Of a stretch of 64,000 nucleotides of DNA, positions 35,605 to 57,238 are shown piece after piece. The notes beneath the pieces are model-generated. The model worked only from the letters and a program-made list of their open reading frames with translations, made no database searches and was not told the DNA's origin. The stretch's first letter is position 1. Every line of letters begins with the position of its first letter. The stretch is from Candidatus Peregrinibacteria bacterium (lineage in GTDB: Bacteria; Patescibacteriota; Gracilibacteria; UBA1369; LOWO2-01-FULL-3), in the NCBI GenBank assembly GCA_030688025.1, contig JAUYJL010000009.1:1503-65502 (forward strand). Reading direction: 5' to 3'. A program made the position numbers and the translations under genes.

Positions 35605-36795
35605 CTATGTCAAAATCTCCCCCAACCTTCCTTGTTTCACCGCTTCTTTCACCTCCATTCCAATTCTTTCTCCAAAACTTACACTCTCGCCGTAAAGATA
35701 GGTTGTGCAAGGCGTAAACCTAGTCCCTGGTGATCCCGGAATTCTCATTGAAACATCAAAAACTACAAATTCCTCTTTTCCCTCATACGCTGCGATGGCT
35801 CCTTGTAGAGCAAAAGCACCGATGATTCCGGGAGCGACTTCATTCTTTAAAGTTGCCACAAATTTTTCTCCAGCCTCAAAAGCTTTTTCAAGAATTGATT
35901 CTTTTGTAGTACAAGCCACGTGTCCGGTTTCAATCATCGAAGGCGCGTATCCGGCATTCAAAAGTTCCATCTGTGTATCTGCATTTAATCTCAAAAATCC
36001 ATCCAAAGAAGTCTGTCTTCGTAAGTCTGTTCCCATTATTTCAAGTTCACCATTAAGAGGGGAGTAGAAAAAATTGAAATTTATTTGCGCACCGATAATA
36101 AATTCTTCGATCACAGAATTATCCAAATCTTTCTGATTTATTTTGCCTTCGTTTATCATTTTTTCGCTGACAGTAAAATAAGAATCAGTATTTGTAATAA
36201 CGAAAAAAGCCCTTTCATATCCCCTTATCGCCTCATTCACTTTTACGATCAATGGTCCACCTTTGTCAGTTACAAAATGTGTGTCCAATATTTTTTTAGT
36301 ATCTTCGTAACCCAATTTTTCACCACCTTGTCTGACAATTTTCGGCATTCTTATTCCGGCTTTTTCAAGAAGATAATATTGGTTTTTTGGTTGATCTCTC
36401 TCTTCGAGTTTTACTCCTTCTCTAAGCCCAAAAACCGGCACTTTAAATTGGTCTTCAAAGTCTTTAAAATCTTTGAAATAAACCCAGAAATATCGATTAT
36501 GAATGAAAATCGTATTCATCGCACGAAGCTTTTCTTGAACATCTTCATTGATAATATCTGAAAATTTATCTACCAAAATGATTTCATCAATACATCCACG
36601 TCCATCTTCACGGGTTTTATAATATTTAGAATATGTCTTGTCTCTGCCGTTTTGGCAAACTGCGACAGTTTTAAATCCATGTTTTTTTGCGCCACTGCAA
36701 ACATCGAGTGCGCTGTGTCCGCCAAGAACACCAATCGTAATATTTTTTAAATCGTAAGTCTTCAAAATCTCCAAAATATCTTTTTGTCCGATCAT
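35605..36795 (-). CDS. purP: Archaeal-type FAICAR synthetase PurP paralog (ATP-grasp, formate-dependent)
   Basis: ITIGVLGGHSALDVCSGAKKHGFKTVAVC N-terminus and the ATP-grasp C-terminal half. It is paralogous to the neighbouring gene. Confidence 0.75.
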   Translation of the reverse strand: MIGQKDILEILKTYDLKNITIGVLGGHSALDVCSGAKKHGFKTVAVCQNGRDKTYSKYYKTREDGRGCIDEIILVDKFSDIINEDVQEKLRAMNTIFIHNRYFWVYFKDFKDFEDQFKVPVFGLREGVKLEERDQPKNQYYLLEKAGIRMPKIVRQGGEKLGYEDTKKILDTHFVTDKGGPLIVKVNEAIRGYERAFFVITNTDSYFTVSEKMINEGKINQKDLDNSVIEEFIIGAQINFNFFYSPLNGELEIMGTDLRRQTSLDGFLRLNADTQMELLNAGYAPSMIETGHVACTTKESILEKAFEAGEKFVATLKNEVAPGIIGAFALQGAIAAYEGKEEFVVFDVSMRIPGSPGTRFTPCTTYLYGESVSFGERIGMEVKEAVKQGRLGEILT

Positions 36796-36828
36796 TGCTG
36801 TAAAAATTAAAATATAATTTTGGCTTTC

Positions 36829-37854
36829 TTATCCAAGAACCTCCGAAAGCCTATCCTGCTCTATCGCCATTTTAATATCTCTTGCCAGTCTGCGTCCAGT
36901 GCTCATTGGTTCGTTGTATTTTAGCCAAGTGTAAGGAGAACCGTTTATGTACGGATTTGTCCCGGCCACAATCCTTGCTGAAATTTCAAAAACTGAATAA
37001 TTAAGTTCAGGATCGATGATGCCTTCAAGACAGAAAGGCCCAAAAAGTCCTCCTGTAACCAACTTTTTCGAAGCATCAACTACGCGTTGTCCCATCTCAA
37101 AAATCTCCGGTAAAAGTGATTCTCTGACCACCAAAGGTACATTCCCTGTGATTGTATAAGTCGTACGAATATCTACATCAACCTGATCTTTAGCCGCAAT
37201 TCGTCCGATAGAATCGGCATTTGACTCGTATCTTTTATCAAATCCCATCACCTCAAGTTCGCCGGTAAGTGGGCTGTAAAAATAGTGTGTATAAACAGGA
37301 ACTCCGACTACATATTCCTGAATTGCATATTTTTCGTGCCCTTCTTTTTCTCTATACCCCTCATATCTTTCATAAAATTCTTTTGCGGAATTTGCAATAA
37401 AATATCCTTTTCCGCCGTGCGCTCCATGAAATTTTACGATAACAGCTCTATCTATTTCCTCAGGAGTTTTGAAAATTTTCGGAAGCATGATGTTCGCATC
37501 AAGAAGCCATTGTCTCTCTTTTGTCCTATCTGATTCCCATTCCAAAATCGCCTTTGTTCCATAGTGCATGGCCTTGACCTCCATCATTTTGCTAGGCCCT
37601 ATATAAGCTACAAAAGAACCATGAGGAACGATAATTGCATTCTGTTTTATAAGCTCAGGCTCTATGCTGAAATAATCTTTAAATGAATCTACGGTGATAA
37701 TCTGATCCGCGACCCCGTAAGACAAATAAGGCTTTTCTTTGCCTTTTTCACAGATACATATAGTCTCGAATCCTTCATCCTTTGCCCCTTTTAGAATCTG
37801 AAGAGCAGTGTGGCTTCCAAGTGTCGCTATTTTGTAATCTTTGATGTTTCCCAT
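36829..37854 (-). CDS. purP: Archaeal-type FAICAR synthetase PurP (ATP-grasp, formate-dependent)
   Basis: KIATLGSHTALQILKGAKDEGFETICIC..., IVPHGSF, and FCLEGI...FEISARIVAGTN match the PurP (DUF1246/DUF1297) family as I remember it. Confidence 0.8.
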   Translation of the reverse strand: MGNIKDYKIATLGSHTALQILKGAKDEGFETICICEKGKEKPYLSYGVADQIITVDSFKDYFSIEPELIKQNAIIVPHGSFVAYIGPSKMMEVKAMHYGTKAILEWESDRTKERQWLLDANIMLPKIFKTPEEIDRAVIVKFHGAHGGKGYFIANSAKEFYERYEGYREKEGHEKYAIQEYVVGVPVYTHYFYSPLTGELEVMGFDKRYESNADSIGRIAAKDQVDVDIRTTYTITGNVPLVVRESLLPEIFEMGQRVVDASKKLVTGGLFGPFCLEGIIDPELNYSVFEISARIVAGTNPYINGSPYTWLKYNEPMSTGRRLARDIKMAIEQDRLSEVLG

Positions 37855-37957: not shown

Positions 37958-37987
37958 TTGCATAGTTTTTTGTTTATTTGCTATAAT
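37958..37987 (+). promoter_or_regulatory. Promoter for the MNT/HEPN operon (apparently leaderless mRNA)
   Basis: TTGCAT (37958-37963), 18 nt, TATAAT (37982-37987). The MNT ATG at 37994 is only 6 nt downstream of the -10. Confidence 0.5.
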
Positions 37988-37993
37988 AAAAAC

Positions 37994-38287
37994 ATGACAG
38001 TTCAAGCATTAAAAAAACAGATCATTCCCACGTTGCAACGCCGAGGAGCAATAAAAATAGCAATTTTTGGGTCATTTGCTACAAGAAAAGAAAAAAAAAC
38101 AAGCGACGTTGATATTTTAGTAAAATTCAAAAATGAAGTTACTCTGCTTCAATTGTCAAATATGAAGCTGGAATTAGAAGATAAACTGGAAAGAAAAGTA
38201 GATCTCCTGACATATGGAGGCATAAATCCACGCCTAAAAAAGATCATTCTACAGGAACAAAAAATTATATATGAAAAAAGATCCTAA
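37994..38287 (+). CDS. Nucleotidyltransferase-domain antitoxin (MNT) of a HEPN/MNT module
   Basis: IAIFGSFATRKEKKTSDVDILVKF matches the GSxxRG...DxD minimal nucleotidyltransferase motif. It overlaps the HEPN gene by 17 nt. Confidence 0.85.
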   Translation: MTVQALKKQIIPTLQRRGAIKIAIFGSFATRKEKKTSDVDILVKFKNEVTLLQLSNMKLELEDKLERKVDLLTYGGINPRLKKIILQEQKIIYEKRS

Positions 38288-38663
38288 GATCTTTCTCGAA
38301 CATGTCCTAGAAAGCATCGAAGACATCGAAAAATACACAAAAGGACAGACTAAAGAAAAATTTGCAAAAGCAAAAATGATGCAAGATGCAGTCATTAGAA
38401 AATTTGAAATCATTGGGGAAGCAGTTAAAAATCTTCCACCGCCTTTTAGAAAAAAATACCCAAAAATTGCTTGGAGAGACATTGCGGGAATGAGAGATAT
38501 ACTCATACACGAATATTTTGGCATAAACATAAATGTTGTGTGGAAGACGGTACAAGAAGATCTCCCAAGCTTAAAAAGACAAATCACTGAACTTAATGAA
38601 AGCAGGCTTGAAATATCTGCCGGCAAAGGGAAAGTATTGAATTCATTAAAAGATTTGAGGTAA
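38271..38663 (+). CDS. HEPN (DUF86) toxin of a HEPN/MNT module
   Basis: RDILIHEY is the Rx4H HEPN motif. Size (130 aa) and pairing with MNT fit. Confidence 0.85.
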   Translation: MKKDPKIFLEHVLESIEDIEKYTKGQTKEKFAKAKMMQDAVIRKFEIIGEAVKNLPPPFRKKYPKIAWRDIAGMRDILIHEYFGININVVWKTVQEDLPSLKRQITELNESRLEISAGKGKVLNSLKDLR

Positions 38664-38824: not shown

Positions 38825-39649
38825 TCAAAGCGGACTTTTAATATTTCGAATACTCGACGCGGAAACCTGAGTATATCTTTGCGTGGTGCGGAGATTTTGA
38901 TGTCCCAAAAGAGTTTGTATGTAACGGATATCGGTGCCATTTTCGAGCAAATGAGTGGCAAAACTATGGCGAAGGCTGTGAAAAGTCGCGTCAGCAAAAA
39001 CGCCAGACTTTAAAAGTGCATTGCTAAAGATTTTTTGCGCAGTACGAGTGGTAAGTCGTCCACCTCGTTCACTTTCAAAAAGGAAATCATTTTTATCTCT
39101 TCCTGCAACAAAATCTATCAAAGGAGAAATCAACTTTTCCGGCAAAATGGTAATTCTGTCTTTATTGCCTTTTGCCTGTATTACGTAAATGATTTTCTCA
39201 GAAATATTCAAATCTTTAACTTTGATTTTTACAACTTCACTAACCCGAAGCCCAGCTCCATAAGCCAAAGAAATCATAAGTCGGTGTTTTAAGTTTGTTA
39301 TGGAATCAATAACTTTCAAAATGTCGTTTTTCGCCAAAACAACAGGAAGTTTCAGGGGTCGACGTGCAAATTTTATATCAATTTTGCAAAAGCATTTCAT
39401 GACATCTCTATAAAAAAACTTAATGGCATTGAGATAAAGATTCACAGTCTCAGGCGCATAATTTTTCAAATGTTTTTGTTTCAAAAAATCTTTAATAATT
39501 TCAACATCGGGAGAAGAAATATCTCTACCGACGAAGTTGAAAAACTCCCTCAAACAAGCCAAATAAGACTTCCTAGTCTGCGGGCTGTAATTTCTGATGA
39601 TGATTTCTCTTTCGGTCTGATTTATGTAAAAAGAATGTTCCATATACAC
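38825..39649 (-). CDS. Integron-integrase-like tyrosine recombinase lacking the IntI-specific additional domain
   Basis: RRPLKLPVVLAKNDI, LAYGAGLRVSEVVKIKVKDL, AKGNKDRITILPEKL, HSLRHSFATHLLENGTDIRYIQTLLGHQNLRTTQRYTQV and a C-terminal IKSPL. It is divergent from the cassette array with the attI-like site about 110 bp upstream. Confidence 0.9.
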   Translation of the reverse strand: MYMEHSFYINQTEREIIIRNYSPQTRKSYLACLREFFNFVGRDISSPDVEIIKDFLKQKHLKNYAPETVNLYLNAIKFFYRDVMKCFCKIDIKFARRPLKLPVVLAKNDILKVIDSITNLKHRLMISLAYGAGLRVSEVVKIKVKDLNISEKIIYVIQAKGNKDRITILPEKLISPLIDFVAGRDKNDFLFESERGGRLTTRTAQKIFSNALLKSGVFADATFHSLRHSFATHLLENGTDIRYIQTLLGHQNLRTTQRYTQVSASSIRNIKSPL

Positions 39650-39716
39650 ACTTATACATCCCCGACTTAAAATATTCTTAAATTTTTCCTGAAATTTTGC
39701 TAAACTCTAAAACCTG

Positions 39717-39746
39717 ATGACAAAACCAACATTGTTCGTATATACT
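39717..39746 (+). promoter_or_regulatory. Candidate cassette promoter (Pc-like) reading into attI
   Basis: ATGACA (39717-39722), 18 nt, TATACT (39741-39746). This is the same -10 hexamer as the lexA promoter, oriented toward the array. Confidence 0.3.
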
Positions 39747-39756: not shown

Positions 39757-39796
39757 GTTTCTATACGAAAACACTTCGCATAGAAACGAGTTAGCC
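39757..39796 (+). other. attI-like site
   Basis: Imperfect inverted repeat GTTTCTATACGAA-aacac-TTCGCATAGAAAC, followed by GA-GTTAGCC-GAAAT. The GTTAGCC at 39790-39796 supplies the TTAGCC that matches R'' (GGCTAAC) of the first attC. Confidence 0.7.
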
Positions 39797-39846
39797 GAAA
39801 TATCCTTTTATTAAACTCATTATTTAAAATCCTTAACTAAAATGTT

Positions 39847-40362
39847 ATGCACATCAAAAAACGTCCGTTGGTAATTTTTTTATCAATAGTAGCCATCTCT
39901 TTTATTGCTGGGTTGCTATATATGAACAAAGGGGTAGATCCAAACTATTCAATTTCAATTAATGGAAAAAACATAGTTGTTTCTCAGGATAAATGGAAAT
40001 TCGTTGAACCCTTTGAACCAAGTTTATATAGCAAAAATTATAGTGCTATAAATAAAAGAGATGGCCACGAATTTGAGCAGATGATAACAGTCTTTCTACA
40101 AAAAATGACTGACGATAGAAAAATTGGAGAAAAAATTACCAACTCAGAGTATATCGAAGCTTTTGTTGTGCATCCAAATTCAGTTACCGTACAAATCAGA
40201 ATTGATAAAGGTGATTATTGGGTCATGAGTAGAGAAACCTTTGAATCAAAAAATAATTACCCAGATCAAACAGATGTATCTTATTCTGATTTGTTACTGA
40301 ATTTTGAGGATATGCAGAACAGAATCGATAATACAAAATACATTTTAAATAATGAGTTTTAA
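39847..40362 (+). CDS. Cassette 1: membrane-anchored hypothetical protein (171 aa)
   Basis: Single ORF in cassette 39791-40494, with an N-terminal TM helix (LVIFLSIVAISFIAGLLYM). Confidence 0.6.
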   Translation: MHIKKRPLVIFLSIVAISFIAGLLYMNKGVDPNYSISINGKNIVVSQDKWKFVEPFEPSLYSKNYSAINKRDGHEFEQMITVFLQKMTDDRKIGEKITNSEYIEAFVVHPNSVTVQIRIDKGDYWVMSRETFESKNNYPDQTDVSYSDLLLNFEDMQNRIDNTKYILNNEF

Positions 40363-40383
40363 AAAACAATAAAAGGATACATC

Positions 40384-40500
40384 GGCTAACACAGAATATG
40401 CGGTTTCGCTCCCGTTGGTCGCTACACCCATATTTGCCAGCGGTCGCCCTTCGGGCATATTATACCGCTGTCAAACATCGCATATTCTGGGACGTTGTGC
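40384..40500 (+). other. attC 1 (R'' GGCTAAC ... R' GTTGTGC)
   Basis: L'' CAGAATATGCG pairs with L' CGCATATTCTG, and inner TTTGCCAGCGGT pairs with ACCGCTGTCAAA. Spacers are 1 nt after R'' and 4 nt (GGAC) before R'. Confidence 0.85.
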
Positions 40501-40578
40501 GAAATTCTCTTTTGTGAAAAACTGAAAACAAGGATAATTTTGGCACTTTTTAACTCATTAACTCTTAATTTAAAAACT

Positions 40579-41421
40579 ATGAGCGAGCAAACAACATCGA
40601 AACCTTGGTATAAAAAATGGTGGGGAATCATTTTAACAATCGCATTTTTCCCTCTTGTTGTACCATATTTAGTATGGACAAAAACAACTTGGAATAAATG
40701 GGTCAAAATCGCCATAACGGCAGTTTGTGCAATTATTGTTATTTCCAGCATGGTTGATTCCAGTCAAAGAAAGCAGGAATCCTTGGATCTCGTAAATCAA
40801 GCAGAAGTCTTTATCAGTGAAAATAAAATTAGCGATGCTTTGACTGCTTTGAATAAATCTCAAGAACTTAATACTATAAAAAGTGAAAATTCTGCTTTTG
40901 AATTAGAGGAGAAAATAACAAAATTGCAATCAGCAGAGTTTTTGAAAAAGACTTTAGCAGATATGTCAGATAGCGATTTTGACCTTCTACAGAAAGGCGA
41001 GCTAAAAACATCTTTTATCAATCACGATGGACTAAATAAACTTTTCCTTGCAAAGCTACGAGAGAACGCTGATCAGAGAGCCGTATATATTGCTGAAGTT
41101 GAGGAGTTAAGAAAAAAAGAACAAGAAGAAGCTGAGAAGAAAAAACTAGAAGCTGAAGCCAACGCTAGAACAGAAACGATTGAAAAGCAGTTTAGTGCTT
41201 GGGACGGCTCTCACATTAAACTTACAAGATTGATAAAAAATTCCATGAATGACCCAGATAGCTATGAACATGTTGAAACTAAATATTGGGACATGAAAGA
41301 TCATCTTATTGTAAATACAACATTTAGAGGGAAAAATGCTTTCGGCGGAACTGTAAAAAATACAGTAAAAGCCAAGGTTTCTCTTGACGGTGAGAATGTC
41401 GAAATTCTTGAACAATATTAA
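40579..41421 (+). CDS. Cassette 2: two-TM, coiled-coil hypothetical protein (280 aa)
   Basis: The start is set at MSEQTTSKPWYKKWW; the listed ORF start at 40495 is the cassette junction itself. The central region is Glu/Lys-rich and coiled. The C-terminal FSAWDGSH...KNAFGG domain has unknown function. Confidence 0.6.
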   Translation: MSEQTTSKPWYKKWWGIILTIAFFPLVVPYLVWTKTTWNKWVKIAITAVCAIIVISSMVDSSQRKQESLDLVNQAEVFISENKISDALTALNKSQELNTIKSENSAFELEEKITKLQSAEFLKKTLADMSDSDFDLLQKGELKTSFINHDGLNKLFLAKLRENADQRAVYIAEVEELRKKEQEEAEKKKLEAEANARTETIEKQFSAWDGSHIKLTRLIKNSMNDPDSYEHVETKYWDMKDHLIVNTTFRGKNAFGGTVKNTVKAKVSLDGENVEILEQY

Positions 41422-41475
41422 AGCGGATAAAAAGTGCCAAAATTGAATTAGATTTTTTTCACAAAAGAGAACATC

Positions 41476-41552
41476 GCACAACAGCGTGTATGCGGTTCCG
41501 CTACGCTCCACCCATATTGCTTCGCAACATCGCATACACGCAAACGTTAGCC
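41476..41552 (+). other. attC 2 (R'' GCACAAC ... R' GTTAGCC)
   Basis: L'' GCGTGTATGCG pairs with L' CGCATACACGC. There is 1 nt on the R'' side and AAAC on the R' side. Length is 77 bp. Confidence 0.85.
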
Positions 41553-41645
41553 GAAATTCAAAAAATATTTTCCTATAATTAAAGAGTTTTGATAGGCTCT
41601 TAGAAAATAACAAGCTTTATATAATCCACTAACAACATAAAAAAT

Positions 41646-42041
41646 ATGAAAGTACTTATCATCAAAAACGCACTAATACATTTCCTCCTGATTCCATTCT
41701 ATATTTTCACAGCAAAAGAAGTTGCACTCATGCCAGCAGATAGATGGGATACACTTCTTTTATTTATTGGTCTGATTGTCATAGCGCCAATTACCAGCAA
41801 CTTTATCTACAATTACAAAAATGCTGAAACTCAAAAAGCGATAAACTGGGGGCATGTAACGACATTTTTCTCAATGCTGGTAATTGGCATGCTGTTCATA
41901 GCTTTAGATGTTCTTCTCGTTTTAATGGTCGGAAATGTATTAGTTTTTAGATTAGTGCTTGCTCTTTTCTGGCTAGCCGTAGTTACATTTGATTTTGCAG
42001 ATTTTCTGACAAATACAAAGAGCCTATCAAAACAAAAATAA
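41646..42041 (+). CDS. Cassette 3: small 4-TM membrane protein (131 aa)
   Basis: Four hydrophobic helices; no family recognised. Confidence 0.55.
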   Translation: MKVLIIKNALIHFLLIPFYIFTAKEVALMPADRWDTLLLFIGLIVIAPITSNFIYNYKNAETQKAINWGHVTTFFSMLVIGMLFIALDVLLVLMVGNVLVFRLVLALFWLAVVTFDFADFLTNTKSLSKQK

Positions 42042-42113
42042 GGGAAAATATTTTTTGAACTCGCTCCTTTCAGTCGCGCCCCGCTGCGCTCTCCTCCCTT
42101 TGGTCGTCGGGTC

Positions 42114-42226
42114 GGCTAACACTGCATAACAGGTTCGGCTCTTGCAGAGCCTCACCCAAATTGCGCAGGTGTGAGCCTTCGGCTATTATACACCTGCGCA
42201 ACTTCTGTTATGCAGGAACGTTATAT
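42114..42226 (+). other. attC 3 (R'' GGCTAAC ... R' GTTATAT)
   Basis: L'' CTGCATAACAGG pairs with L' TCTGTTATGCAG, and inner TTGCGCAGGTGT pairs with ACACCTGCGCAA. The R'-side spacer is GAAC. Confidence 0.85.
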
Positions 42227-42267
42227 GAAATGCTTTTGGGGCTAACTTTATTTGATACAATCAAAAC

Positions 42268-43182
42268 ATGAAATTTCAATTAACGGAACCGAACAAACAA
42301 TATTCAAATGCTGAACTCATAGAAGATATTCAAAGAGTTGCAGGTGAGCTCGGCAAAAATTCTGTATCCCAACGAGAATATGATCGATTGGGCAATTTTT
42401 CGTATCAGACATTCAAAAAGAGGTTCGGTTCCTGGAAAAGTGCATTAAAAGAAGCTGGGCTTGAACAAAGCAAGCGTCCTTGGGGTGGTGATTTAACAGA
42501 AACACGCATACCCAAAGAACAGCTTATTGCAGATATGAAAAGAGTTGCAGGCGAACTGGAAAAACAAGCTATCACAATTGCTGATTATGATAAGCATGGA
42601 AAGTTTGGCTCTTCGGCAATCTGTAAAAGATTTGGTGGCTGGAACAAGGCAAAAGAAGCAGCAAATCTGAAAATCGGAAGAGTTTATAATTCAACAGACG
42701 AAGACTATTTTGAAAACATAGCTGATGTTTGGGAACATCTTGGTCGCCAACCACGATATCAAGAAATGACAGCACCACTTTCAAAATTAAATATATCATC
42801 ATACGAGCGAAAATTTGGAACATGGCGAAATGCTCTCGAAAAATTTGTTGAATATATAAACTCTAAAGACGACGCCGAAGAGCCGCAAGAAGCAATCGAG
42901 CCAAAGAAATCAGCAATTGTTCCTAAAAAAGAAGAGAAACCAATAAAAAAGCAGGTGGTTAAAAAAAGAACCAACCGCATTGCAAATCTACGACAGAGAT
43001 TTAGAGTAATGAAAAGAGATGGTTTCAAATGTGTATTGTGTGGAAGTTCGCCAGCAACTCAAGTAGGCTGTGAATTGCATATAGATCACATCATACCTTG
43101 GAGTAAAGGTGGTGAAACTGTAGAGGAAAATTTAAGGACGCTTTGTTCAAGCTGTAATTTAGGAAGATCAAATAAAGAATAA
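42268..43182 (+). CDS. Cassette 4: HNH endonuclease with three N-terminal ~55-aa repeats
   Basis: C-terminal CVLCGS...HIDHIIPWSKGGETVEENLRTLCSSCN is an HNH motif. The N-terminus has three copies of ...(Q/D)YD(R/K)...(F/Y)...KRFGSWK(S/N)AL.EAGL-type repeats (homing-endonuclease-associated repeat). Confidence 0.85.
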   Translation: MKFQLTEPNKQYSNAELIEDIQRVAGELGKNSVSQREYDRLGNFSYQTFKKRFGSWKSALKEAGLEQSKRPWGGDLTETRIPKEQLIADMKRVAGELEKQAITIADYDKHGKFGSSAICKRFGGWNKAKEAANLKIGRVYNSTDEDYFENIADVWEHLGRQPRYQEMTAPLSKLNISSYERKFGTWRNALEKFVEYINSKDDAEEPQEAIEPKKSAIVPKKEEKPIKKQVVKKRTNRIANLRQRFRVMKRDGFKCVLCGSSPATQVGCELHIDHIIPWSKGGETVEENLRTLCSSCNLGRSNKE

Positions 43183-43204
43183 TGAACCGCCCCAAAAGCA
43201 CATC

Positions 43205-43282
43205 ATATAACAAGGCATATACGGCTACGCTACGCTTCGCCCATATTGCTATCGCAACATCGTATATGCCGAAACGTTAGCC
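43205..43282 (+). other. attC 4 (R'' ATATAAC ... R' GTTAGCC)
   Basis: L'' GGCATATACGG pairs with L' CGTATATGCC. The R'-side spacer is GAAAC. Length is 78 bp. Confidence 0.85.
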
Positions 43283-43326
43283 GAAATTGAAAGTAATTTT
43301 TTTATTCCTTTAACCAAAATCAAAAC

Positions 43327-43605
43327 ATGGAAAAGTATTTCATTTTAGCAATAACATTTGCATATAGCATCGGCGGTTTAGTCACATTCGCAGGATTTTT
43401 TCCAACAATGAAGGATTTATGGAAAGGAAAACCAAGTGCAAATGTGCACACCTACATAATTTGGTCGATAACAACCTTCCTTACATCTTTATATGCAATA
43501 TTTGTTGTCAAAGACTTGGTTTTCAGTTTGGTTATCAACCTACAATTAGCGGCATGTTTAATAGTTTTGATTTTGAGATTAAGGCTAAAATTAAAAAGAA
43601 CATAA
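43327..43605 (+). CDS. Cassette 5: small 3-TM membrane protein (92 aa; SemiSWEET/PQ-loop-like topology)
   Basis: Three hydrophobic helices in 92 aa. The family assignment is only a guess from topology. Confidence 0.45.
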   Translation: MEKYFILAITFAYSIGGLVTFAGFFPTMKDLWKGKPSANVHTYIIWSITTFLTSLYAIFVVKDLVFSLVINLQLAACLIVLILRLRLKLKRT

Positions 43606-43665
43606 AAAAATTACTTTCAACTCAAGGGGACGCTGCGCTTTCGCTCCCTTCAGTCGCTCACCCTC

Positions 43666-43783
43666 GGCTAACACTGAATGTGCGGTTCGCGGCTTGCAGC
43701 CGCTCTCCCATATTCACTGGCGGTGAATCGCTTTGCGATATATTATACCGCCAGTGAACATCGCACATTCAGAAACGTTAGGC
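43666..43783 (+). other. attC 5 (R'' GGCTAAC ... R' GTTAGGC)
   Basis: L'' CTGAATGTGCG pairs with L' CGCACATTCAG, and inner TTCACTGGCGGT pairs with ACCGCCAGTGAA. The R'-side spacer is AAAC. Confidence 0.85.
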
Positions 43784-43873
43784 GAAAGAAGAAAAAGCAT
43801 TTGTATTTTACAGTCGACTTGACAAGTCGCCAAAAAAAAGTATAAAGTAGAAAACTATTAACACATACTATTT

Positions 43874-44101
43874 ATGGAAAAAATACAATGTCCTGGTTAT
43901 TACTATAAAAATCGTGAAATGCAGCCAGCCTTTCCTGATGATAAAGTTGATGCATTAGTCCAAGAAGTAGATGGCGAACTCATAGTAGCATGCCCATTTT
44001 TAAGACAACCTACTGAGGCCAGCCCATTGTTATGCGGAAGAATACTTCAGATAACGCATACTGACGAAGTAGCGGCTGGCTGCCCCTATTCAACAAAGTA
44101 A
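43874..44101 (+). CDS. Cassette 6: small Cys-containing hypothetical protein (75 aa)
   Basis: Single ORF in cassette 43778-44239; no family recognised. Confidence 0.45.
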   Translation: MEKIQCPGYYYKNREMQPAFPDDKVDALVQEVDGELIVACPFLRQPTEASPLLCGRILQITHTDEVAAGCPYSTK

Positions 44102-44119
44102 ACCGCTTTTTCTTCCATC

Positions 44120-44245
44120 GCCTAACAATGAATAACTGGTTCACTCCTTCACTCCGTTCAGTCGTTCTCCCAAATTTGGCGGCGGTATGTCGCTCCGCTC
44201 CAAATTTTACCGCCACCACACTTCAGTTATTCATGGACGTTAGCT
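44120..44245 (+). other. attC 6 (R'' GCCTAAC ... R' GTTAGCT)
   Basis: L'' ATGAATAACTGG pairs with L' CAGTTATTCAT, and inner TTTGGCGGCGGT pairs with ACCGCCACCACA (imperfect). The R'-side spacer is GGAC. Confidence 0.85.
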
Positions 44246-44474
44246 GAAATATTCCTTTTCTTTTCTGGGCTATCGCCCAATTGTTTTAAAAAATTTTCAA
44301 ATTTCTTTTTCTTTTTTATAAGGGGAAATATGGAGTTTTCTCCGCTCTGCTACGAAAACACTTGTTTTGTAGAGGGGAATAGCGGTGTTTCCTCCGCTTC
44401 GCTCCAGAAACTCTTTATATATTAAGGGAAAAATACTATACTACCATTAACCCGCCTTTGAACATAAAAACCCT

Positions 44475-46535
44475 ATGGAAATTAATTTCAAAAGTAAATT
44501 ATTTGAACTACTAAAAAGAGACCATCGTCTTTGGAATGAAGAGACCAAGGAATTCAATGAAACTCTTTTAAAAGATTTAGTGGATAAGCTGGATGAAAAT
44601 ATCCTCGAGCTACTTTTTAATAACGCGGAAACAAAAGAACGATTTTTCATAAAAATAAAGGATGTTTATGTATTAAAGCAAAACGAGTTAAAATTTTTCA
44701 TTGATGAAAATAAATTAGACAATTCATTTACCCAGCTTGCCAATAAAATTGGCCTCACCATAGATGACAAAAAAGACGAAAGGGTTGTTTTGAACTGGCC
44801 ATTTAAGGATTGTGTATTAGAGGGCGGCATGACAAAAGAAGACGCTGTTGATGTTTATTATAAATTTGATAAAAAGACCGGCGAATGGAAAGAGGAGGCC
44901 GCAAAGAGAAAAGAAATTTTCTTTAATGAAGTTTTAGCTCGCGATGAAATAGACCGGCTTGAAGATCCAAAAACTCTTTATAAGTGGCGAAGATTTACTG
45001 CTGAAAATTCTGAAAATGGAGAAGAGTTAAAAGAAATAAAGAGAGACGAAAAAGGGATTATAAAGGAAAATTTTGTAATCAAAGGCAATAATCTACTTTC
45101 ATTACATAGCTTAAAATCTCAATTTGAAGGGAAAATAAAACTTATCTACATAGATCCCCCATTTAACACTGGTAAGGATGAATTCAAGTATAATGACAAC
45201 TTTAATCATTCTGCATGGCTAACTTTCATGAAAAACAGGCTAGCGGTAGCAAAAGAATTATTAAGAGATGACGGCGTAATTTTTGTACACATTGGCAATG
45301 AGGAAGCGGCATATATGCAAGTTTTATTAGATGAAATTTTTAACAGGGAAAATTATTTGAATCATATTACAATGAGTACTAATGCGGCATCTGGATTTAA
45401 AGCTACCAGTGCTAAAATATTTTCAACAGCAAACCATATTTTTGTTTATGCCAAAAAAGCAGATAAGGGGTATTTGAATAAGTTATATACAAGAAAAGAA
45501 TATGATGATAGTTACGGATATTATTTACTAAATCCAAGCGAACCATATTCAAGATGGAAGTACAAAAAAATTATTGAAATACTCGCCGAAGAAAATGGAT
45601 TTAAAGATGTGAAATCTTTTCAGAAAAGTTTCGCCAAAGAAATTATACTGGAAAAAATAAAAAAATTTGCACATCTAAATAAGGAAAGAGTATTCCGGAC
45701 TGCAGCATTAGGCGGAGGCGCACTTACGAAAAGAAAAGTCACTGTAGAAAAATCCAAAAAAGAAAAAGGGGTTGTTCTCCAACATCCAAATGAAGACGTG
45801 AAAGGTTTTTATATTTTAAATGGAGAACAGATCGTTTTTTGGTCAAATACCTATAAAGAAATTGATGGAGATATTGTGCCAGCAACATCCCTCACAGATG
45901 TATGGACTGACATCGGTTTTACTGGAATCGCAAATGAGGGTGGTATAACCTTAAAAAATGGCAAAAAACCTGAACCTCTCCTTAAAAGGATAATTGAATT
46001 AGGATCAAGCGAAAATGATATAGTACTTGATTTCTTCGCTGGCAGTGGAACCACTTGCGCGGTGGCCCATAAAATGGGACGACAGTGGATTGCCATCGAA
46101 CAACTTGATTATTCTGATAATAACCCTGAGGAAAGAATGAAAGGGGTCATTGCTGGCGATCCTACTGGAATTTCCAAAACAATAAATTGGAAGGGTGGAG
46201 GTGACTTTATTTACACGCAACTGGCAAAATGGAATGAAGAGGCAAAAGAAAAAATTTCTGAAGCAAAATCTTATGATGAGTTAGTGAAGCTATTTTCATT
46301 GCTCTATGAAAAATATTTCCTAAATTATAATGTGCGAGCAAAAGATTTTAAAGAAAGCATAATAGAAAACAATGAATTCAAAAAACTTTCACTCGAAAGA
46401 CAAAAGGAAATATTTGGAAAAATGCTCGATCTAAACCAGATGTACATAAATTTCAGTGAAAGGAATGATAAAAAATATGAGCTAACATCAAGAGATATAG
46501 AACTCAGTGAAAAATTTTATAATGTGAAAAATTAA
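44475..46535 (+). CDS. mod: Cassette 7: Type III restriction-modification methyltransferase (Mod)
   Basis: LIYIDPPFNTGKDEF (motif IV, DPPF) precedes DFFAGSGTTCAVAHKMGRQWIAIE (motif I), a beta-class order typical of Type III Mod. The res gene follows immediately. Confidence 0.88.
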   Translation: MEINFKSKLFELLKRDHRLWNEETKEFNETLLKDLVDKLDENILELLFNNAETKERFFIKIKDVYVLKQNELKFFIDENKLDNSFTQLANKIGLTIDDKKDERVVLNWPFKDCVLEGGMTKEDAVDVYYKFDKKTGEWKEEAAKRKEIFFNEVLARDEIDRLEDPKTLYKWRRFTAENSENGEELKEIKRDEKGIIKENFVIKGNNLLSLHSLKSQFEGKIKLIYIDPPFNTGKDEFKYNDNFNHSAWLTFMKNRLAVAKELLRDDGVIFVHIGNEEAAYMQVLLDEIFNRENYLNHITMSTNAASGFKATSAKIFSTANHIFVYAKKADKGYLNKLYTRKEYDDSYGYYLLNPSEPYSRWKYKKIIEILAEENGFKDVKSFQKSFAKEIILEKIKKFAHLNKERVFRTAALGGGALTKRKVTVEKSKKEKGVVLQHPNEDVKGFYILNGEQIVFWSNTYKEIDGDIVPATSLTDVWTDIGFTGIANEGGITLKNGKKPEPLLKRIIELGSSENDIVLDFFAGSGTTCAVAHKMGRQWIAIEQLDYSDNNPEERMKGVIAGDPTGISKTINWKGGGDFIYTQLAKWNEEAKEKISEAKSYDELVKLFSLLYEKYFLNYNVRAKDFKESIIENNEFKKLSLERQKEIFGKMLDLNQMYINFSERNDKKYELTSRDIELSEKFYNVKN

Positions 46536-46537
46536 GT

Positions 46538-49321
46538 ATGAATGAGCAAAATTTACAACAGCTCATTGAATCAGAAATAGGTCGAAAGACCATTTCGAAA
46601 ATAGATTTGCCTGAATACATCACTACTAATTTAAGGCACGATTTTTGGTATTGGCAAAAAGAAGCATTGCAATATTTTTTTGCATTTGATGATCCTGTAT
46701 ACGAATTTGAGAAAATAGTGAATGAGCCAACTCACTTGATGTTTAACATGGCGACCGGCACAGGCAAAACCATGCTCATGGGAGCACTGATTTTATATTA
46801 CTACACAAAGGGTTATAAACACTTCATTTTCTTTGTAAACCAAAATAACATTGTAGATAAAACGGAAAATAATTTTATCAATAAAAGCCACACTAAATAT
46901 ATTTTCAGGCAGAGGACAGTAATAGATGACAAGACAATCAATATCCGCAAAGTTGAAACTTTTGACGAAACTGATGACATTCAAATTAAATTTGTTTCAA
47001 TTCATAAGCTTCACAACGATGTCTATTTAGCAAAAGAAAATTCCTTAACACTTCAGGAATTACAGACAAGAGATTTAGTCATGATCGGAGACGAAGCACA
47101 TCATTTTAACGCTTCCACAATAAAGAATGGCCAAACAGAAATTGAATTACCAACAGAACTAAAAGAGAATGCCAGTGATAAAGATATTGAGAAAAGCTGG
47201 GAAGATACGGTTTTAAATAAGATTTTGAGAAAAGGAAAAAGTAAACAAGATGTCGAGAATAAAAATGTTTTACTGGAATTTACTGCAACCATTCCTAAAA
47301 ATACAGATGTTATTGAAAAATACCACACAAAGATTATATATAAATTTGAACTCGTTGATTTTTTAAAGGCGGGATATACAAAGGAAATAAACTTAGTATC
47401 CACATCACTGAAAAAGAAAGAGAAAATTTTATTATCCTTGCTTTTTAATTGGTACCGTCATCAGATTGCACTAAAAAATAACATACCAAATTTTAAGCCA
47501 GTCATTCTTTTCAGAAGTAAACTTATTGAAGAATCAGAAAAAGATTATCAGGAATTTTGTTCAATTATTTCAAAACTAAATCCCTCAGATTTTGATTTCT
47601 TAAAAACTGTTGAGGATAGTATAAAACAAGATCAGGACAGTCTATTTAAAGTTTATGAACAAGGAAAAAGTCGCGTAAAGCAGCTTTTGCAGTTTATTAA
47701 GGACGAAAAAATCAACATTCGCCAGATACTGGATTACTTACAATCAGAATTTTCTGAAAAAAATTGCATTATTACGAACTCAAAAGATAACAATGCAACT
47801 ACTAAAGAAAAAACCTCAGAAGAGCAGGAGCAACTACTAAACAGCTTAGAAGATAAAAATAATCATACCCGTGCAATTTTTACGGTAAAACGACTTACTG
47901 AGGGCTGGGATGTATTAAATCTCTTTGATATAGTTAGACTCTATGAAGGAAGAGATGAGGGGCATAAAAACGGTAAAAGAATTGCCGGTCAAGCAACGAC
48001 TCAAGAAATACAACTAATCGGGCGTGGAGTCCGTTATTTCCCCTTTTCTTACAATGAGCATGAAAAAAACAAAAGAAAATTTGACAATGATTTAGAAAAT
48101 CCCCTCAGAGTTTTGGAAGAGTTTTATTATCACAGTGGAGGCGGTGATTTAGAAAAAGAACGCAGATATATTGATGAATTAAAACGAGAACTTAAAAATA
48201 AAGGATATATTCAAGAGAATAGATCACCAAAGAAATTTAGTTTGAAAGAAGAGTTTAAACAAACAGCTTTTTTTAGAGAGATAAAAGTGTGGAAGAATGA
48301 AAGAATAGAGAATCCGGAAAGGCGCCGACATACACTAACGGAATTGCAAAAGAATTTTATTTTTGAGTACAAAACAAAAGATTTGTCGTTAAGTGAGCAA
48401 CGTGTTGTTTTCGATAATGAGGTCGACGAAATGCTTGCTGAAAGTAAAAGTACAGAGAGAAAAACCTTAAACGTAAAAATTTCAGAGTTTGAAAAACATA
48501 TTGTATGGAAAGCTATAAACAGAAAAGCAAAAAAAGATTTATCGATTTTGCGCTTTGATAATTTGAAAGATGAATTGGATATTAAAAGTATTGATGAAAT
48601 TTTCTCCGATAATCTTCTTGGGGAATTTAAGGTAAATATTATTGTTTCAAAAACTAAAAATGGGTTCTCCGAAATAGATAACAAGGAAAAATTAGAAATA
48701 CTACTTTCCTTTTTTGATGAATTTACCAAGAAGCTAAAAGAAATTGCTAATCCATTCAAAGGAACAATGGATTTTATGCCGTTTTCATTTGGTCAACTTT
48801 TTGGCGAGGAAAAAAAGAAAAATGTGCTTATCGACGAAGAGAGTAAGGCTCTTGAGGTAGAGTTACTCCAACACAAATGGTATGTTTTAGACGGGTTTAA
48901 TGGAACAAGTGAGGAAAGAGATTTAATTGAATTTTTCAAAAACAAATTTGGCAATCTTGAAGAAAAATATGACGAAATTTATCTGCTCAGAAACGAGGAG
49001 GTATATAAACTCTATGATTTTGAACAGGGACGTGGATTTGAGCCAGATTTTTTACTTTTCCTGAAAGGTAAGGAAGGAAATTTATATTTCCAAGTATTTA
49101 TTGAGCCAAAAGGTAGTCAATTTACAGATAAAGAAGGTGGTTTCAAGGAAAGCAAAGAAGGATGGAAGGAAGAATTTTTACAACAAATTACAGATAAATA
49201 TGGCACTGGCAACTTATTAAAAGTAGAAAGTAAAAACTACAAATTGATCGGATTACCTTTATTCAACAAGCAAGAAGAACATTCCTTTGATACAGAATTT
49301 AGTAATCTGCTATTAAAATAG
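46538..49321 (+). CDS. res: Cassette 7: Type III restriction enzyme Res subunit (SF2 helicase-nuclease)
   Basis: Walker A is MATGTGKT and the DEAH box is MIGDEAHHF. Helicase motif VI-like QLIGRGVR is present, as is a C-terminal nuclease-like EPDFLLF...IEPKG (PD-ExK). Confidence 0.88.
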   Translation: MNEQNLQQLIESEIGRKTISKIDLPEYITTNLRHDFWYWQKEALQYFFAFDDPVYEFEKIVNEPTHLMFNMATGTGKTMLMGALILYYYTKGYKHFIFFVNQNNIVDKTENNFINKSHTKYIFRQRTVIDDKTINIRKVETFDETDDIQIKFVSIHKLHNDVYLAKENSLTLQELQTRDLVMIGDEAHHFNASTIKNGQTEIELPTELKENASDKDIEKSWEDTVLNKILRKGKSKQDVENKNVLLEFTATIPKNTDVIEKYHTKIIYKFELVDFLKAGYTKEINLVSTSLKKKEKILLSLLFNWYRHQIALKNNIPNFKPVILFRSKLIEESEKDYQEFCSIISKLNPSDFDFLKTVEDSIKQDQDSLFKVYEQGKSRVKQLLQFIKDEKINIRQILDYLQSEFSEKNCIITNSKDNNATTKEKTSEEQEQLLNSLEDKNNHTRAIFTVKRLTEGWDVLNLFDIVRLYEGRDEGHKNGKRIAGQATTQEIQLIGRGVRYFPFSYNEHEKNKRKFDNDLENPLRVLEEFYYHSGGGDLEKERRYIDELKRELKNKGYIQENRSPKKFSLKEEFKQTAFFREIKVWKNERIENPERRRHTLTELQKNFIFEYKTKDLSLSEQRVVFDNEVDEMLAESKSTERKTLNVKISEFEKHIVWKAINRKAKKDLSILRFDNLKDELDIKSIDEIFSDNLLGEFKVNIIVSKTKNGFSEIDNKEKLEILLSFFDEFTKKLKEIANPFKGTMDFMPFSFGQLFGEEKKKNVLIDEESKALEVELLQHKWYVLDGFNGTSEERDLIEFFKNKFGNLEEKYDEIYLLRNEEVYKLYDFEQGRGFEPDFLLFLKGKEGNLYFQVFIEPKGSQFTDKEGGFKESKEGWKEEFLQQITDKYGTGNLLKVESKNYKLIGLPLFNKQEEHSFDTEFSNLLLK

Positions 49322-49324
49322 GAA

Positions 49325-49379
49325 GTTTTCGGTCGGGGCAATTCACCCCTTTAGTTCCCCTCTTGCCCCTCCCTCAAAC
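49325..49379. repeat. Conserved-loop hairpin H1 (degenerate copy)
   Basis: GTTTTCGGTCGGGGCAA - TTCACCCCTTTAGTTCCCCTC - TTGCCCCTCCCTCAAAC, with 13/17 stem pairs. Confidence 0.6.
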
Positions 49380-49390
49380 AAGAAATAGGT

Positions 49391-49445
49391 GTTTTGGGTG
49401 GCGGGCATTCACCCCTTTAATTCCCCTCTGCCCACCACCCAAAAC
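49391..49445. repeat. Conserved-loop hairpin H2
   Basis: GTTTTGGGTGGCGGGCA - TTCACCCCTTTAATTCCCCTC - TGCCCACCACCCAAAAC, with 16/17 stem pairs. Confidence 0.75.
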
Positions 49446-49509
49446 GGAAAAAGAAATTTGAAAATTTTTAAAACAACCGACTATCGACGGAAAAGAAAAG
49501 GAATACATC

Positions 49510-49636
49510 AGCTAACACTGCGTATGCGGTTACGGCTTGCTCCGTACCTCCGCAAGCCTCCACCCATATTTGCCAGTGGTAAGCACTTCGTGCAATTATA
49601 CCACTGGCAAACATCGCATACGCAGGGACGTTATGT
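49510..49636 (+). other. attC 7 (R'' AGCTAAC ... R' GTTATGT)
   Basis: L'' TGCGTATGCG pairs with L' CGCATACGCA, and inner TTTGCCAGTGGT pairs perfectly with ACCACTGGCAAA. The R'-side spacer is GGGAC. Confidence 0.88.
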
Positions 49637-49666
49637 GAAATAGACTTTACTACCTAAGTGCAAAAT

Positions 49667-50437
49667 ATGACAAACGATCAAACTAAAAAATTCTACGATG
49701 AACTATCGGCTGATTATCATTTGATTTTCGGTAATTGGGATAATGCAATAAAAAGACAATCAAAAATTTTAGATAACATTATCCAAAAATATTCAAAAAA
49801 CGAATCAAAAACGTTATTGGATTGTTCTTGCGGGATAGGAACACAAGCCATTGGATTAGCGAATCTTGGATATAAAGTTCATGCAACAGATTTAAGTCCA
49901 AAAGCAATTGTGAGAGCCAGATTAGAAGCAAACAAAAGGGGTGTTTCAATATCTTTCGATGTTGCCGATTTCAAGAAATTAGAAGATCAAGTTGAAGGAA
50001 CTTTTGATATTGTCATTTCTTGTGATAATTCATTACCACATTTATTAACAGACGAAGAATTGCTTTTGGCTGCAAAAAATATTCTTTCTAAAATGAAATC
50101 CAATAGCTTGTTTATCGCAAGCATCAGAGATTATGACCAACTTTTGGAAGACAAACCAATTAGCACTCAACCAAACGTAAAAGATTTTACAAAGGAAAGA
50201 ACAATTTCTTTTCAAGTGTGGGATTGGGATGAAAATAATGTTTATACTGTTAATCATTTTACTCTGAAAGGAATTAATGAAAAATTTGATACGTTTTTGA
50301 GAACAACTAAATATAGAGCATATAAACGCGATGAAATGTCTAAAATTTTTAAAGAAGCAGGATTTATCGAAATCAAATGGTTAATGCCGAATGAATCAGA
50401 ATACTATCAGCCGATAATAATTGCGTTGAAACCGTAA
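49667..50437 (+). CDS. Cassette 8: class I SAM-dependent methyltransferase (small-molecule type)
   Basis: LLDCSCGIGTQAIGLANLGYKVHATDLS (motif I and the post-I acidic residue). The start is set at ATG 49667 (MTNDQ) rather than GTG 49658. Confidence 0.8.
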   Translation: MTNDQTKKFYDELSADYHLIFGNWDNAIKRQSKILDNIIQKYSKNESKTLLDCSCGIGTQAIGLANLGYKVHATDLSPKAIVRARLEANKRGVSISFDVADFKKLEDQVEGTFDIVISCDNSLPHLLTDEELLLAAKNILSKMKSNSLFIASIRDYDQLLEDKPISTQPNVKDFTKERTISFQVWDWDENNVYTVNHFTLKGINEKFDTFLRTTKYRAYKRDEMSKIFKEAGFIEIKWLMPNESEYYQPIIIALKP

Positions 50438-50449
50438 AGTCTACATCAC

Positions 50450-50591
50450 ATAACACGGTATATGGGGTTCAGAAAATTTCACTCAAAAGATTTAAAAGGA
50501 ATGTGAAATTTTCTTCTCCCAAATTTGCCTCACACTATTGATAAAAATTAAGGAGTTCGGCAAACTTCCCATATACCGAAACGTTGTGCGA
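50450..50591 (+). other. attC 8 (R'' ACATAAC ... R' GTTGTGC)
   Basis: L'' CGGTATATGGG pairs with L' CCCATATACCG. An inner hairpin is GAAAATTTCAC...GTGAAATTTTC. The R'-side spacer is AAAC. Length is 142 bp. Confidence 0.85.
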
Positions 50592-50761
50592 AATATTTTT
50601 CAATATTTTTTCTTTAATAAGGAATTTTTGTTGAAGAATTTAAAAAAGGATGGAATTTTTATTTTAATGAGGGGGATATAATGTATTTTTTGCTCCGTTC
50701 CTCCGCAAAAAATGGATTTAATATTTAATGGAAAATCAGTATAATACCACTGTAAAACACT

Positions 50762-51598: not shown

Positions 51599-51627
51599 GA
51601 GATTTATTCATTTAACATAATCTGATA

Positions 51628-54176: not shown

Positions 54177-54182
54177 TAAGGT

Positions 54183-54231
54183 GTTTTTCTTTTTCCAATT
54201 CACCCCTAACCCCTCTTGGAAAAAGAAAAAC
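54183..54231. repeat. Conserved-loop hairpin H3
   Basis: GTTTTTCTTTTTCCAA - TTCACCCCTAACCCCTC - TTGGAAAAAGAAAAAC, a perfect 16-bp stem. Confidence 0.75.
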
Positions 54232-54308
54232 GAAAAATAAAAATTCCAAATAGAAATAAAATTCTTCAACAAAAGAATAAGGAATGAAAAAATATTGAAA
54301 AATACATC

Positions 54309-54435
54309 GCACAACAACTCATATCTGGCTCAAGAAATTGACACATTAATATTTCAAAGGAAAGTCAATTTCTTTCGACCCAAATTTTTGCTTCACTACG
54401 TTTTGCAAAAACTTCAGATATGAGTAACGTTAGCC
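54309..54435 (+). other. attC 9 (R'' GCACAAC ... R' GTTAGCC)
   Basis: L'' CTCATATCTGG pairs with L' CAGATATGAG. An inner hairpin is GAAATTGAC...GTCAATTTC. The R'-side spacer is TAAC. Confidence 0.85.
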
Positions 54436-54662
54436 GAAATACATTTTTACTATTCCCTTTTTGTCGCTCCGCTTTTCGGACTTTTAATAAGGAGGGGCGA
54501 ATTGATTCTTTATTTTTAGAGGGGGGGGCTGTCTGCCTTTGGCAGCCAGTAAGGTATTTTCTTGCTCCCTTCGGTCGCTACGAAAAATTTAGAATTATTT
54601 TAGAAATATTTAATAATTGCATGATATAATCACTACGAAATTTTAAATAAATCAGAATAAAT

Positions 54663-56255: not shown

Positions 56256-56256
56256 T

Positions 56257-57054: not shown

Positions 57055-57057
57055 AGT

Positions 57058-57106: not shown

Positions 57107-57238
57107 AGAATCAATTCGCCCCTTATAAATAAGTGAAAAGCGGTCGTGACATCGGGAATAGTAAAAATGTACTTCGTTCGGTCGCTACGCTCCCTCCGAC
57201 CACGCTGCGCTCTCGCTCCACTGCGTTACGCTCGGGTC

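Follow-up and report, generated by a model that had tools for sequence, protein, structure and literature searches.

Canonical integrons, among them those of IntI1 and VchIntIA and the sedentary chromosomal integrons, consist of an integrase gene divergent from co-oriented promoterless cassettes, an adjoining attI site, and a promoter-like site. Their attC sites are imperfect palindromes with RYYYAAC and GTTRRRY boxes, in which the R'' box of each site carries the footprint of the R' box of the preceding one, and their cassettes, with defense-type cargo, vary at a fixed chromosomal locus. The locus discussed here shares this organization. It lies in a 64-kb window (the whole stretch of DNA that was analyzed) on contig JAUYJL010000009.1, from a metagenome-assembled genome (MAG) of Candidatus Peregrinibacteria, a lineage within the candidate phyla radiation (CPR). 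Its tyrosine recombinase of 272 or 274 amino acids most probably serves as integrase in an integron-like chromosomal system found widely among the CPR/Patescibacteria. The KLPVVL motif, the HxLRHSFAT box, and the C-terminal SPL of IntI are all present in the protein. It differs from canonical integrases in the additional domain, which in VchIntIA reads extrahelical bases of the folded attC: the recombinase lacks the domain, and its attC-like sites lack such bases.

The additional domain, about 35 amino acids near patch III, is the basis of the intI_Cterm profile. Several studies regard it as necessary for activity and as the step by which an Xer-like enzyme came to recombine single strands (Messier & Roy 2001; Escudero 2016, 2020; Cury 2016). 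Archaeal integrons resemble the CPR system in their occurrence outside the classical bacterial phyla and in MAGs of small-genome organisms. According to the study by Ghaly et al. 2022 (PMC9668308), the archaeal IntIs carry the IntI-specific additional domain, in contrast to the CPR family, which has none. The CPR system is integron-like, yet its enzyme fails the current definition of IntI, which requires this domain.

The second group of close relatives is formed by the Xer recombinases. XerA, XerS-difSL, and XerH-difH are similar to the CPR enzyme in size and domain layout and in the top profile and structure matches, and in xerS/difSL and xerH/difH the recombination site adjoins the recombinase gene. 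The known Xer substrates are duplex sites of ~28 to 31 bp for dimer resolution, not hairpin-bounded cassette arrays. Integrative mobile elements exploiting Xer (IMEX), such as the CTX phage, and the pdif modules of Acinetobacter plasmids are, like the CPR system, mobile DNA moved by an Xer-type enzyme, and the integrating form of the CTX phage is a single-stranded DNA folded into a hairpin, of which one strand is exchanged. Such elements are either single phages or islands located at dif, or else modules with duplex dif-like sites on both sides. They are not known to possess a dedicated platform of divergent integrase, promoter, and attI or long arrays of co-oriented cassettes.

A recombinase without the IntI-specific domain

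The recombinase gene occupies positions 38825 to 39649 on the minus strand and encodes 274 amino acids from a GTG codon. The identical database protein P0001 is 272 amino acids long, and the likely start is therefore the ATG at 39643. The open reading frame (ORF) is intact and Xer-sized, with an N-terminal SAM-like domain (SAM_4) in addition to PF00589 (E = 7.9e-42 in the profile search). The initial annotation of this DNA, made from the sequence alone, had described IntI-style boxes in the 274-amino-acid protein, and every quoted box is found in it: RRPLKLPVVL at residues 96 to 105, LAYGAGLRVSE at residues 128 to 138, KGNKDRITILPEKL at residues 160 to 173, HSLRHSFATHLL at residues 224 to 235, LLGH at residues 247 to 250, YTQV at residues 259 to 262, and IKSPL at residues 270 to 274. 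The catalytic residues R135, K160, H224, R227, H250, and Y259 (RKHRHY) are invariant in 31 family members.

The initial annotation had further put the spacing ahead of the histidine box at about 50 residues, compared to about 90 in IntI1, and had concluded that the IntI-specific insertion is absent. Measurement gives 50 residues between LPEKL (ending at residue 173) and H224 of the recombinase and 92 residues between LPESL (ending at residue 184) and H277 of IntI1, whose reference sequence is 100% identical to annotated intI1 genes. A BLASTP comparison of the two proteins shows 30% identity, with 42 query gap positions between residues 181 and 200. The phmmer alignment with VchIntIA (2a3v, the full sequence of which was confirmed against the PDB) falls into two pieces, with query residues 17 to 182 matching IntI residues 14 to 182 and query residues 202 to 274 matching IntI residues 245 to 317. 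Here, 19 residues of the recombinase stand opposite 62 residues of VchIntIA, and IntI residues 183 to 244 are unmatched. In a MAFFT alignment with IntI1, VchIntIA, two XerA proteins, XerC, and XerD, the IntI insertion is absent from the recombinase and its relatives, as it is from all Xer proteins. The AlphaFold2 model of the recombinase (mean predicted local distance difference test score of 86) contains no extra helix between the helices at residues 171 to 181 and 201 to 215, which are joined only by a short strand-containing linker. These comparisons and the model confirm that the recombinase lacks ~42 residues of the IntI-specific additional domain (the I2 helix region) while its active-site residues are intact.

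The consequence for detection had been anticipated as well, namely, that standard integron finders could miss this enzyme. This agrees with the definition of IntI in IntegronFinder, which demands both PF00589 and intI_Cterm (Cury 2016, PMC4889954).

The attC-like array and its attI-like site

The array of ten cassettes (39791 to 57365, plus strand) lies upstream of the recombinase gene and is divergent from it. It contains ten plus-strand repeats of 77 to 142 nt, each with one box of the R'' type, which ends in AAC, and one of the R' type, which begins with GTT. The attC-like sites, all on the plus strand, are site 1 at 40379 to 40505 (R'' GGCTAAC and R' GTTGTGC; 113.6 bits), site 2 at 41471 to 41557 (GCACAAC and GTTAGCC; 80.7 bits), site 3 at 42109 to 42231 (GGCTAAC and GTTATAT; 108.7 bits), site 4 at 43200 to 43287 (ATATAAC and GTTAGCC; 72.9 bits), site 5 at 43661 to 43788 (GGCTAAC and GTTAGGC; 108.2 bits), site 6 at 44115 to 44250 (GCCTAAC and GTTAGCT; 106.6 bits), site 7 at 49505 to 49641 (AGCTAAC and GTTATGT; 116 bits), site 8 at 50443 to 50594 (ACATAAC and GTTGTGC; 91.6 bits), site 9 at 54304 to 54440 (GCACAAC and GTTAGCC; 71.4 bits), and site 10, the last of the array, at 57234 to 57376 (GGCTAAC and GTTAGCT; 98.2 bits). 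At the Rfam gathering thresholds, the only match in the window is a tRNA, and the repeats correspond to none of the known structure families of RNA or DNA.

In 10 of 10 cases in the window, the R'' 7-mer of a site reads exactly as the R' 7-mer of the previous site does when reverse-complemented; for the GGCTAAC of site 1, the partner is an attI-like GTTAGCC at 39790. This complementarity often extends 27 to 33 nt past the box. The same relation holds elsewhere in 33 of 55 adjacent match pairs, counted as ungapped 6-mers with a chance of ~0.10 per 6-mer pair. In the control, the R' box of a site matches its own R'' box in 11 of 95 sites, close to the 10% given by chance. Such a footprint is expected from the insertion and excision of cassettes by crossover in a conserved GTT. 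Top-strand cleavage in R'' was considered as another source, since it would yield the same footprint, but the R'-type half-site at attI beside the gene favors the canonical crossover in R'.

The attI-like site (39757 to 39801, plus strand) comprises a 13-bp hairpin or palindrome at 39757 to 39787 with the loop AACAC (z = -4.6), followed by GA, the GTTAGCC at 39790 to 39796, and GAAAT. This GTTAGCC is 140 bp upstream of where the recombinase gene starts. Intergenic conservation among the window and relatives with 88%- and 76%-identical recombinases ends directly after GTTA, which places the attI junction there, and the crossover at this site presumably falls within the GTT. The cassette junction is located outside the palindrome, not at its center. 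A weak match to the attC model is contained in the attI-like site at 39773 to 39801. Two promoter-like sites, both identified by consensus match only, are found between attI and the gene. The Pc-like, sigma-70-like site ATGACA-18-TATACT (39717 to 39746, plus strand; 10 of 12 consensus matches) is directed into the array, and the site TTGTCA-18-CAAAAT (39694 to 39723, minus strand; 9 of 12) is directed toward the recombinase gene. Both hexamers of the former, ATGACA and TATACT, stand in columns conserved among the window and the related loci L081 and L084.

Folded as DNA, the bottom strands of the attC-like sites form an R stem, an asymmetric internal loop, an L stem, and a branched variable part. 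In contrast to canonical attC sites, the spacer is replaced by a 5x1 internal loop, to which the 5' arm contributes five nucleotides and the 3' arm one, the L stem is an uninterrupted 11 bp, the R stems are extended to ~30 bp, and the internal motifs GGTTC, CCCAWATT, and AACWTC are conserved. The folded L stems of these sites show no extrahelical bases. The consensus retains AAC-A, TAT..GG.T, CCCA.ATT, AAC.TC, AC-GTT-A, and GAAAT. Sites without extrahelical bases are in keeping with an enzyme without the domain by which VchIntIA reads such bases, and the pairing of the two fits a coherent variant of the integron.

A covariance model trained on the ten sites of the window alone leads to an alignment of 95 sites from 42 other loci. 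Paired cells amount to 94.8% in this alignment, compared to 22 to 38% when the partners are slid by 1 to 3 columns, and compensatory changes occur in 10 of the 11 L-stem pairs. The L-stem sequences themselves are not conserved; they covary with a partner 50 to 150 nt away. The bottom strand has the more stable fold of the two in 86 of the 95 sites (Wilcoxon p ~1e-13), owing to several positions at which it forms G-T, compared to A-C in the top strand.

The mechanism proposed for this system follows that of an integron. The enzyme would recombine the attI-like site just upstream of its own gene with the attC-like sites bounding the promoterless cassettes and would also recombine attC with attC. 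Crossover would take place within the conserved ACGTT or GTT of the R' box, so that an inserted cassette would have at its head the 3' portion of an R' box matching its own R''. Transcription of the cassettes would start from the conserved promoter-like site that lies between attI and the gene. As substrates, the attC sites are most likely single strands in folded form, the bottom strand being favored. We infer catalysis by the recombinase, the single-strand pathway, the choice of strand, and the exact position of cleavage.

Family, chromosomal slot, and cargo

The recombinase is not a lone oddity but a member of a very large family. Thousands of relatives of ~270 amino acids, with about 55 to 65% identity, come from CPR/Patescibacteria, and 2168 clusters at E<=1e-30 emerge from an exhaustive search of representatives. 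From species-representative genomes, a scan provided 80 loci of ~20 kb each, with recombinases 46 to 61% identical to that of the window. Their labels comprise Peregrinibacteria, Peribacteria, Uhrbacteria, Moranbacteria, Magasanikbacteria, Wolfebacteria, Nomurabacteria, Dojkabacteria, Gracilibacteria, and Shapirobacteria, together with MAGs labeled Saccharibacteria and a few with non-CPR labels. CPR-type recombinase contigs, some with arrays, are found under the names of Actinomycetota, Pseudomonadales, Gammaproteobacteria, Bdellovibrionales, Margulisiibacteriota, and Micrarchaeota (L002, L014, L019, L032, L052, L056, L063, L065, L069, L072, and L080); these contigs may be mis-binned or mislabeled.

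Linkage of the family to the arrays is strict in position and orientation. The attC covariance model finds 117 matches at E<0.1 in the 80 loci, all of them on the opposite strand and upstream of the recombinase: 117 matches in 340 kb upstream, compared to none in 611 kb downstream. This asymmetry makes a coincidental adjacency of recombinase and array very unlikely. At least one match is present in 44 of the 48 loci (92%) with at least 700 bp of upstream sequence. On the upstream side of the recombinase, the contig breaks off within 700 bp in 32 of the 80 loci, compared to 3 of the 80 on the downstream side, an excess that would be expected if arrays break assemblies. Two loci, L041 from a WWE3 MAG and L048 from a Moraniibacteriota MAG, have 10 kb of upstream sequence and no attC array even with the filters off. 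Each has a weak attI-like match ~100 bp upstream of the recombinase (L041:9853-9881 and L048:9870-9898), and both look like empty platforms. No second tyrosine recombinase is found in the 64-kb window or in any of 85 loci (1.1 Mb).

Family models and structure comparison place the enzyme near both Xer and IntI. The top NCBIfam model is XerA_Arch (NF040815) with 213.4 bits, narrowly under its cutoff of 220. The integron integrase models lie below cutoff, with a two-piece match to TIGR02249 (187.8 bits compared to a cutoff of 265) and 123.8 bits compared to a cutoff of 435 for NF011946. In Foldseek, XerA (5hxy and 4a8e) and VchIntIA (2a3v) rank about equally against the model of the recombinase. 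The PGAP label of some relatives is "site-specific tyrosine recombinase/integron integrase."

Neighbor-joining (NJ) trees based on 266 columns show the CPR proteins as monophyletic in 100 of 100 bootstraps and the IntI proteins likewise in 100 of 100. Both groups unite in a joint clade 99 times in 100 bootstraps, with two XerA proteins and the E. coli enzymes XerC and XerD outside it. The IntI set is composed of IntI1, three relatives, and VchIntIA; it holds little diversity because the IntI1 homolog search gave only relatives at least 74% identical. Signatures common to the family and IntI outside the missing domain, KLPVVL and the C-terminal SPL, agree with this grouping, and the XerA matches stop short of the C-terminal SPL of the recombinase. 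That the family is sister to IntI, and not to XerA or XerC/D, is treated as a lead, on account of the small sampling and the simple method.

The initial annotation had suggested a distinct class of recombinase acting on cassette arrays. Linkage and the NJ tree support this interpretation and do not place the protein among ordinary XerC/D enzymes without a link to attC arrays, and the finding now reaches from one gene to a CPR-wide family, with the observation itself confirmed. Neither integrons in CPR/Patescibacteria nor a domain-less integron integrase turned up in a search of open-access and bioRxiv full text, although a description elsewhere is possible.

The array of the window is embedded in a purine biosynthesis neighborhood. 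Two PurP-like genes (35605 to 37854, minus strand; DUF1246/DUF1297 in related loci), which we take to encode an archaeal-type FAICAR synthetase, lie on one flank, and purH (58232 to 59770, minus strand) lies on the far flank. The PurP-type genes had raised the idea of an archaeal origin, which was discarded because the exact recombinase belongs to a Candidatus Peregrinibacteria MAG and its relatives to the CPR. A DsrE-like gene (57533 to 57853) directly follows the last attC. In L081 and L082, the loci with 88%-identical recombinases, the recombinase gene is located directly beside the same PurP pair and the array ends at purH. The cassettes there are different, encoding LysE, an acetyltransferase, helix-turn-helix (HTH)/HigB pairs, and a metallophosphatase, with three attC matches. 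In L084 (76% identical), the gene is near the same PurP pair with one HTH gene between them. L084 has a single cassette, beyond whose attC lies a fragment of the same DsrE-like gene as stands after the last attC in the window. The same chromosomal slot is therefore occupied by differing cassettes among close relatives. A toxin-antitoxin pair of an MNT-like nucleotidyltransferase and a HepT-like protein (37958 to 38663, plus strand) is situated between the recombinase and the PurP genes of the window; it is absent from L081 and L082, and in L084 an HTH-domain gene is found in this gap.

Every listed cargo ORF of the array is on the plus strand. Besides four small or unknown ORFs, the cassettes encode an HNH endonuclease (42268 to 43182), a type III restriction-modification (R-M) system with Mod and Res (44475 to 49321, in a 5.4-kb cassette), an S-adenosylmethionine (SAM) methyltransferase (49658 to 50437), an EcoRI endonuclease with an EcoRI methylase and an AAA_15 ATPase (50762 to 54176), and an N6/N4 methylase with a TdeIII endonuclease (54663 to 57054). 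Cassette 5 (43260 to 43690) is 83.7% identical at the nucleotide level to a cassette in a Peribacteria MAG (L053:953-1383) whose recombinase is only 48% identical to that of the window, a similarity that suggests an exchange of cassettes between lineages.

The ends of the type III R-M cassette (44239 to 44381 and 49335 to 49534) are 75 to 94% identical to segments in several loci. Both ends are present in L008, L019, L030, and L064, with a distance of ~5 kb between them in L008, and one end only is present in L009, L051, and L054. The R-M cargo proteins (c7a and c7b) are unmatched in the loci sharing these ends. The ends include a 55-nt tandem repeat at 49325 to 49445 and, between the start and the end, an inverted repeat of 33 nt. 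They may belong to a conserved cassette "shell" of the long-hairpin kind whose cargo is exchangeable, a point that bears on the origin of cassettes.

Two further repeats are located beyond the array. Five tandem copies of the 34-nt unit TCCACGGATTACGCCTCATCCACTCCACCCTTGC at 61237 to 61440 overlap ORFs at 61236 to 61555, and degenerate lysine/glutamate-rich repeats (GAAGAAGAAAAACC...) at 63600 to 63860 lie at the 3' end of an ORF at 63270 to 63935.

Alternative explanations and implications

Several points weigh against the recombinase as the integrase of an integron-like system. Its activity on cassettes is deduced from genomic association. The additional domain is held necessary for IntI activity in published work (Messier & Roy 2001, cited in PMC9668308). 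Only ~20 kb was seen of each locus, and a canonical IntI or a second Xer may be encoded elsewhere in these genomes. Archaeal XerA as the top NCBIfam match makes a primary Xer role possible. The NJ tree is small, with 15 to 25 taxa, two partial XerA sequences, and an IntI sampling of class 1-like proteins and VchIntIA, and broad sampling could change its topology. The covariance model was trained on the window, and the pair counts come from an alignment fitted to this model; both inflate the apparent uniformity of the sites, although the margin of the pairing is large.

The enzyme could instead be the housekeeping single Xer of the CPR, acting in chromosome dimer resolution, with the "attI" as a dif-like site and the cassettes as IMEX-like elements that exploit Xer and pile up at dif. 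XerA as the top NCBIfam and PDB match, the great size of the family and its conservation (~55 to 60% identity) across CPR lineages, the 13-bp palindrome at attI, the two loci with the gene and an attI-like match only, and the lack of a second recombinase in the window and the 85 loci all speak for such a role, which overlaps with that of an integron integrase and differs in which function is primary. It is nevertheless rather unlikely. The GTT of the cassette junction lies outside the palindrome, the family groups with IntI and not with XerA, XerC, or XerD, and arrays of fixed orientation and spacing accompany the gene in 92% of the informative loci. The promoter-like site and the co-oriented promoterless cargo of the window are hallmarks of integrons, unlike the sporadic insertion of IMEX.

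The same asymmetry of upstream and downstream matches that ties the family to its arrays makes it very unlikely that the adjacency is incidental and that a canonical, domain-bearing IntI, elsewhere in the genome or in trans, moves the cassettes, with the arrays as clusters of attC sites lacking integrases (CALINs). There is a precedent in the work of Cury (2016, PMC4889954), in which recombinases without intI_Cterm beside attC sites are scattered in the tree, 29 of 50 being in genomes with an IntI elsewhere, and the present loci extend over ~20 kb each. Against it, the CPR recombinases form one clade in the NJ tree, the linkage holds in 44 of 48 informative loci of many lineages, and the conservation at attI breaks exactly at the GTTA beside the gene. 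Within 1.1 Mb of loci, no IntI-like gene is found, and the attC sites do not offer the extrahelical bases read by the IntI domain. Quite improbable, too, is an exchange of both strands of the duplex by this enzyme at L'-spacer-R' cores, with the inverted repeats serving as signals for transcription termination or as cruciforms. An Xer-like enzyme without the domain that is tied to the single-strand specificity of IntI, as set out by Escudero (2020, PMC7790495), would suit a duplex substrate, as would the well-conserved sequence of the R' side (ACGTT...GAAAT). Recombination of the duplex only is disfavored by the L stems, which covary without conservation of sequence, as fits recognition of structure, and by the greater stability of the bottom strand in most sites, an asymmetry for which duplex recombination would not select.

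The short recombinase beside hairpin-bounded cassettes, here and in dozens of further ultra-small CPR bacteria, points to a large overlooked class of integrons, tied to attC arrays in most of the CPR lineages sampled. If the integron-like reading is true, integrons also occur in a large share of bacterial diversity from which the literature searched reports none, and arrays that were filed as orphan attC clusters or escaped detection need reannotation. It would explain the exchange of R-M and other defense genes among genome-reduced episymbionts. The origin of integrons would become open to experiment, with an enzyme that naturally lacks the domain and with attC sites that match it and have no extrahelical bases.

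The domain-less state of the CPR family may be ancestral, or the domain may have been lost secondarily. A tentative extension, doubtful but possible, is that the family preserves or re-creates a pre-I2 integrase, an Xer-like enzyme that recombines folded single-stranded hairpin cassettes and possibly still acts as a dimer resolvase. The additional domain would then not be the innovation that made integrons possible, and the CPR would possess near-universal platforms for gene exchange and defense islands that are invisible to current integron finders.

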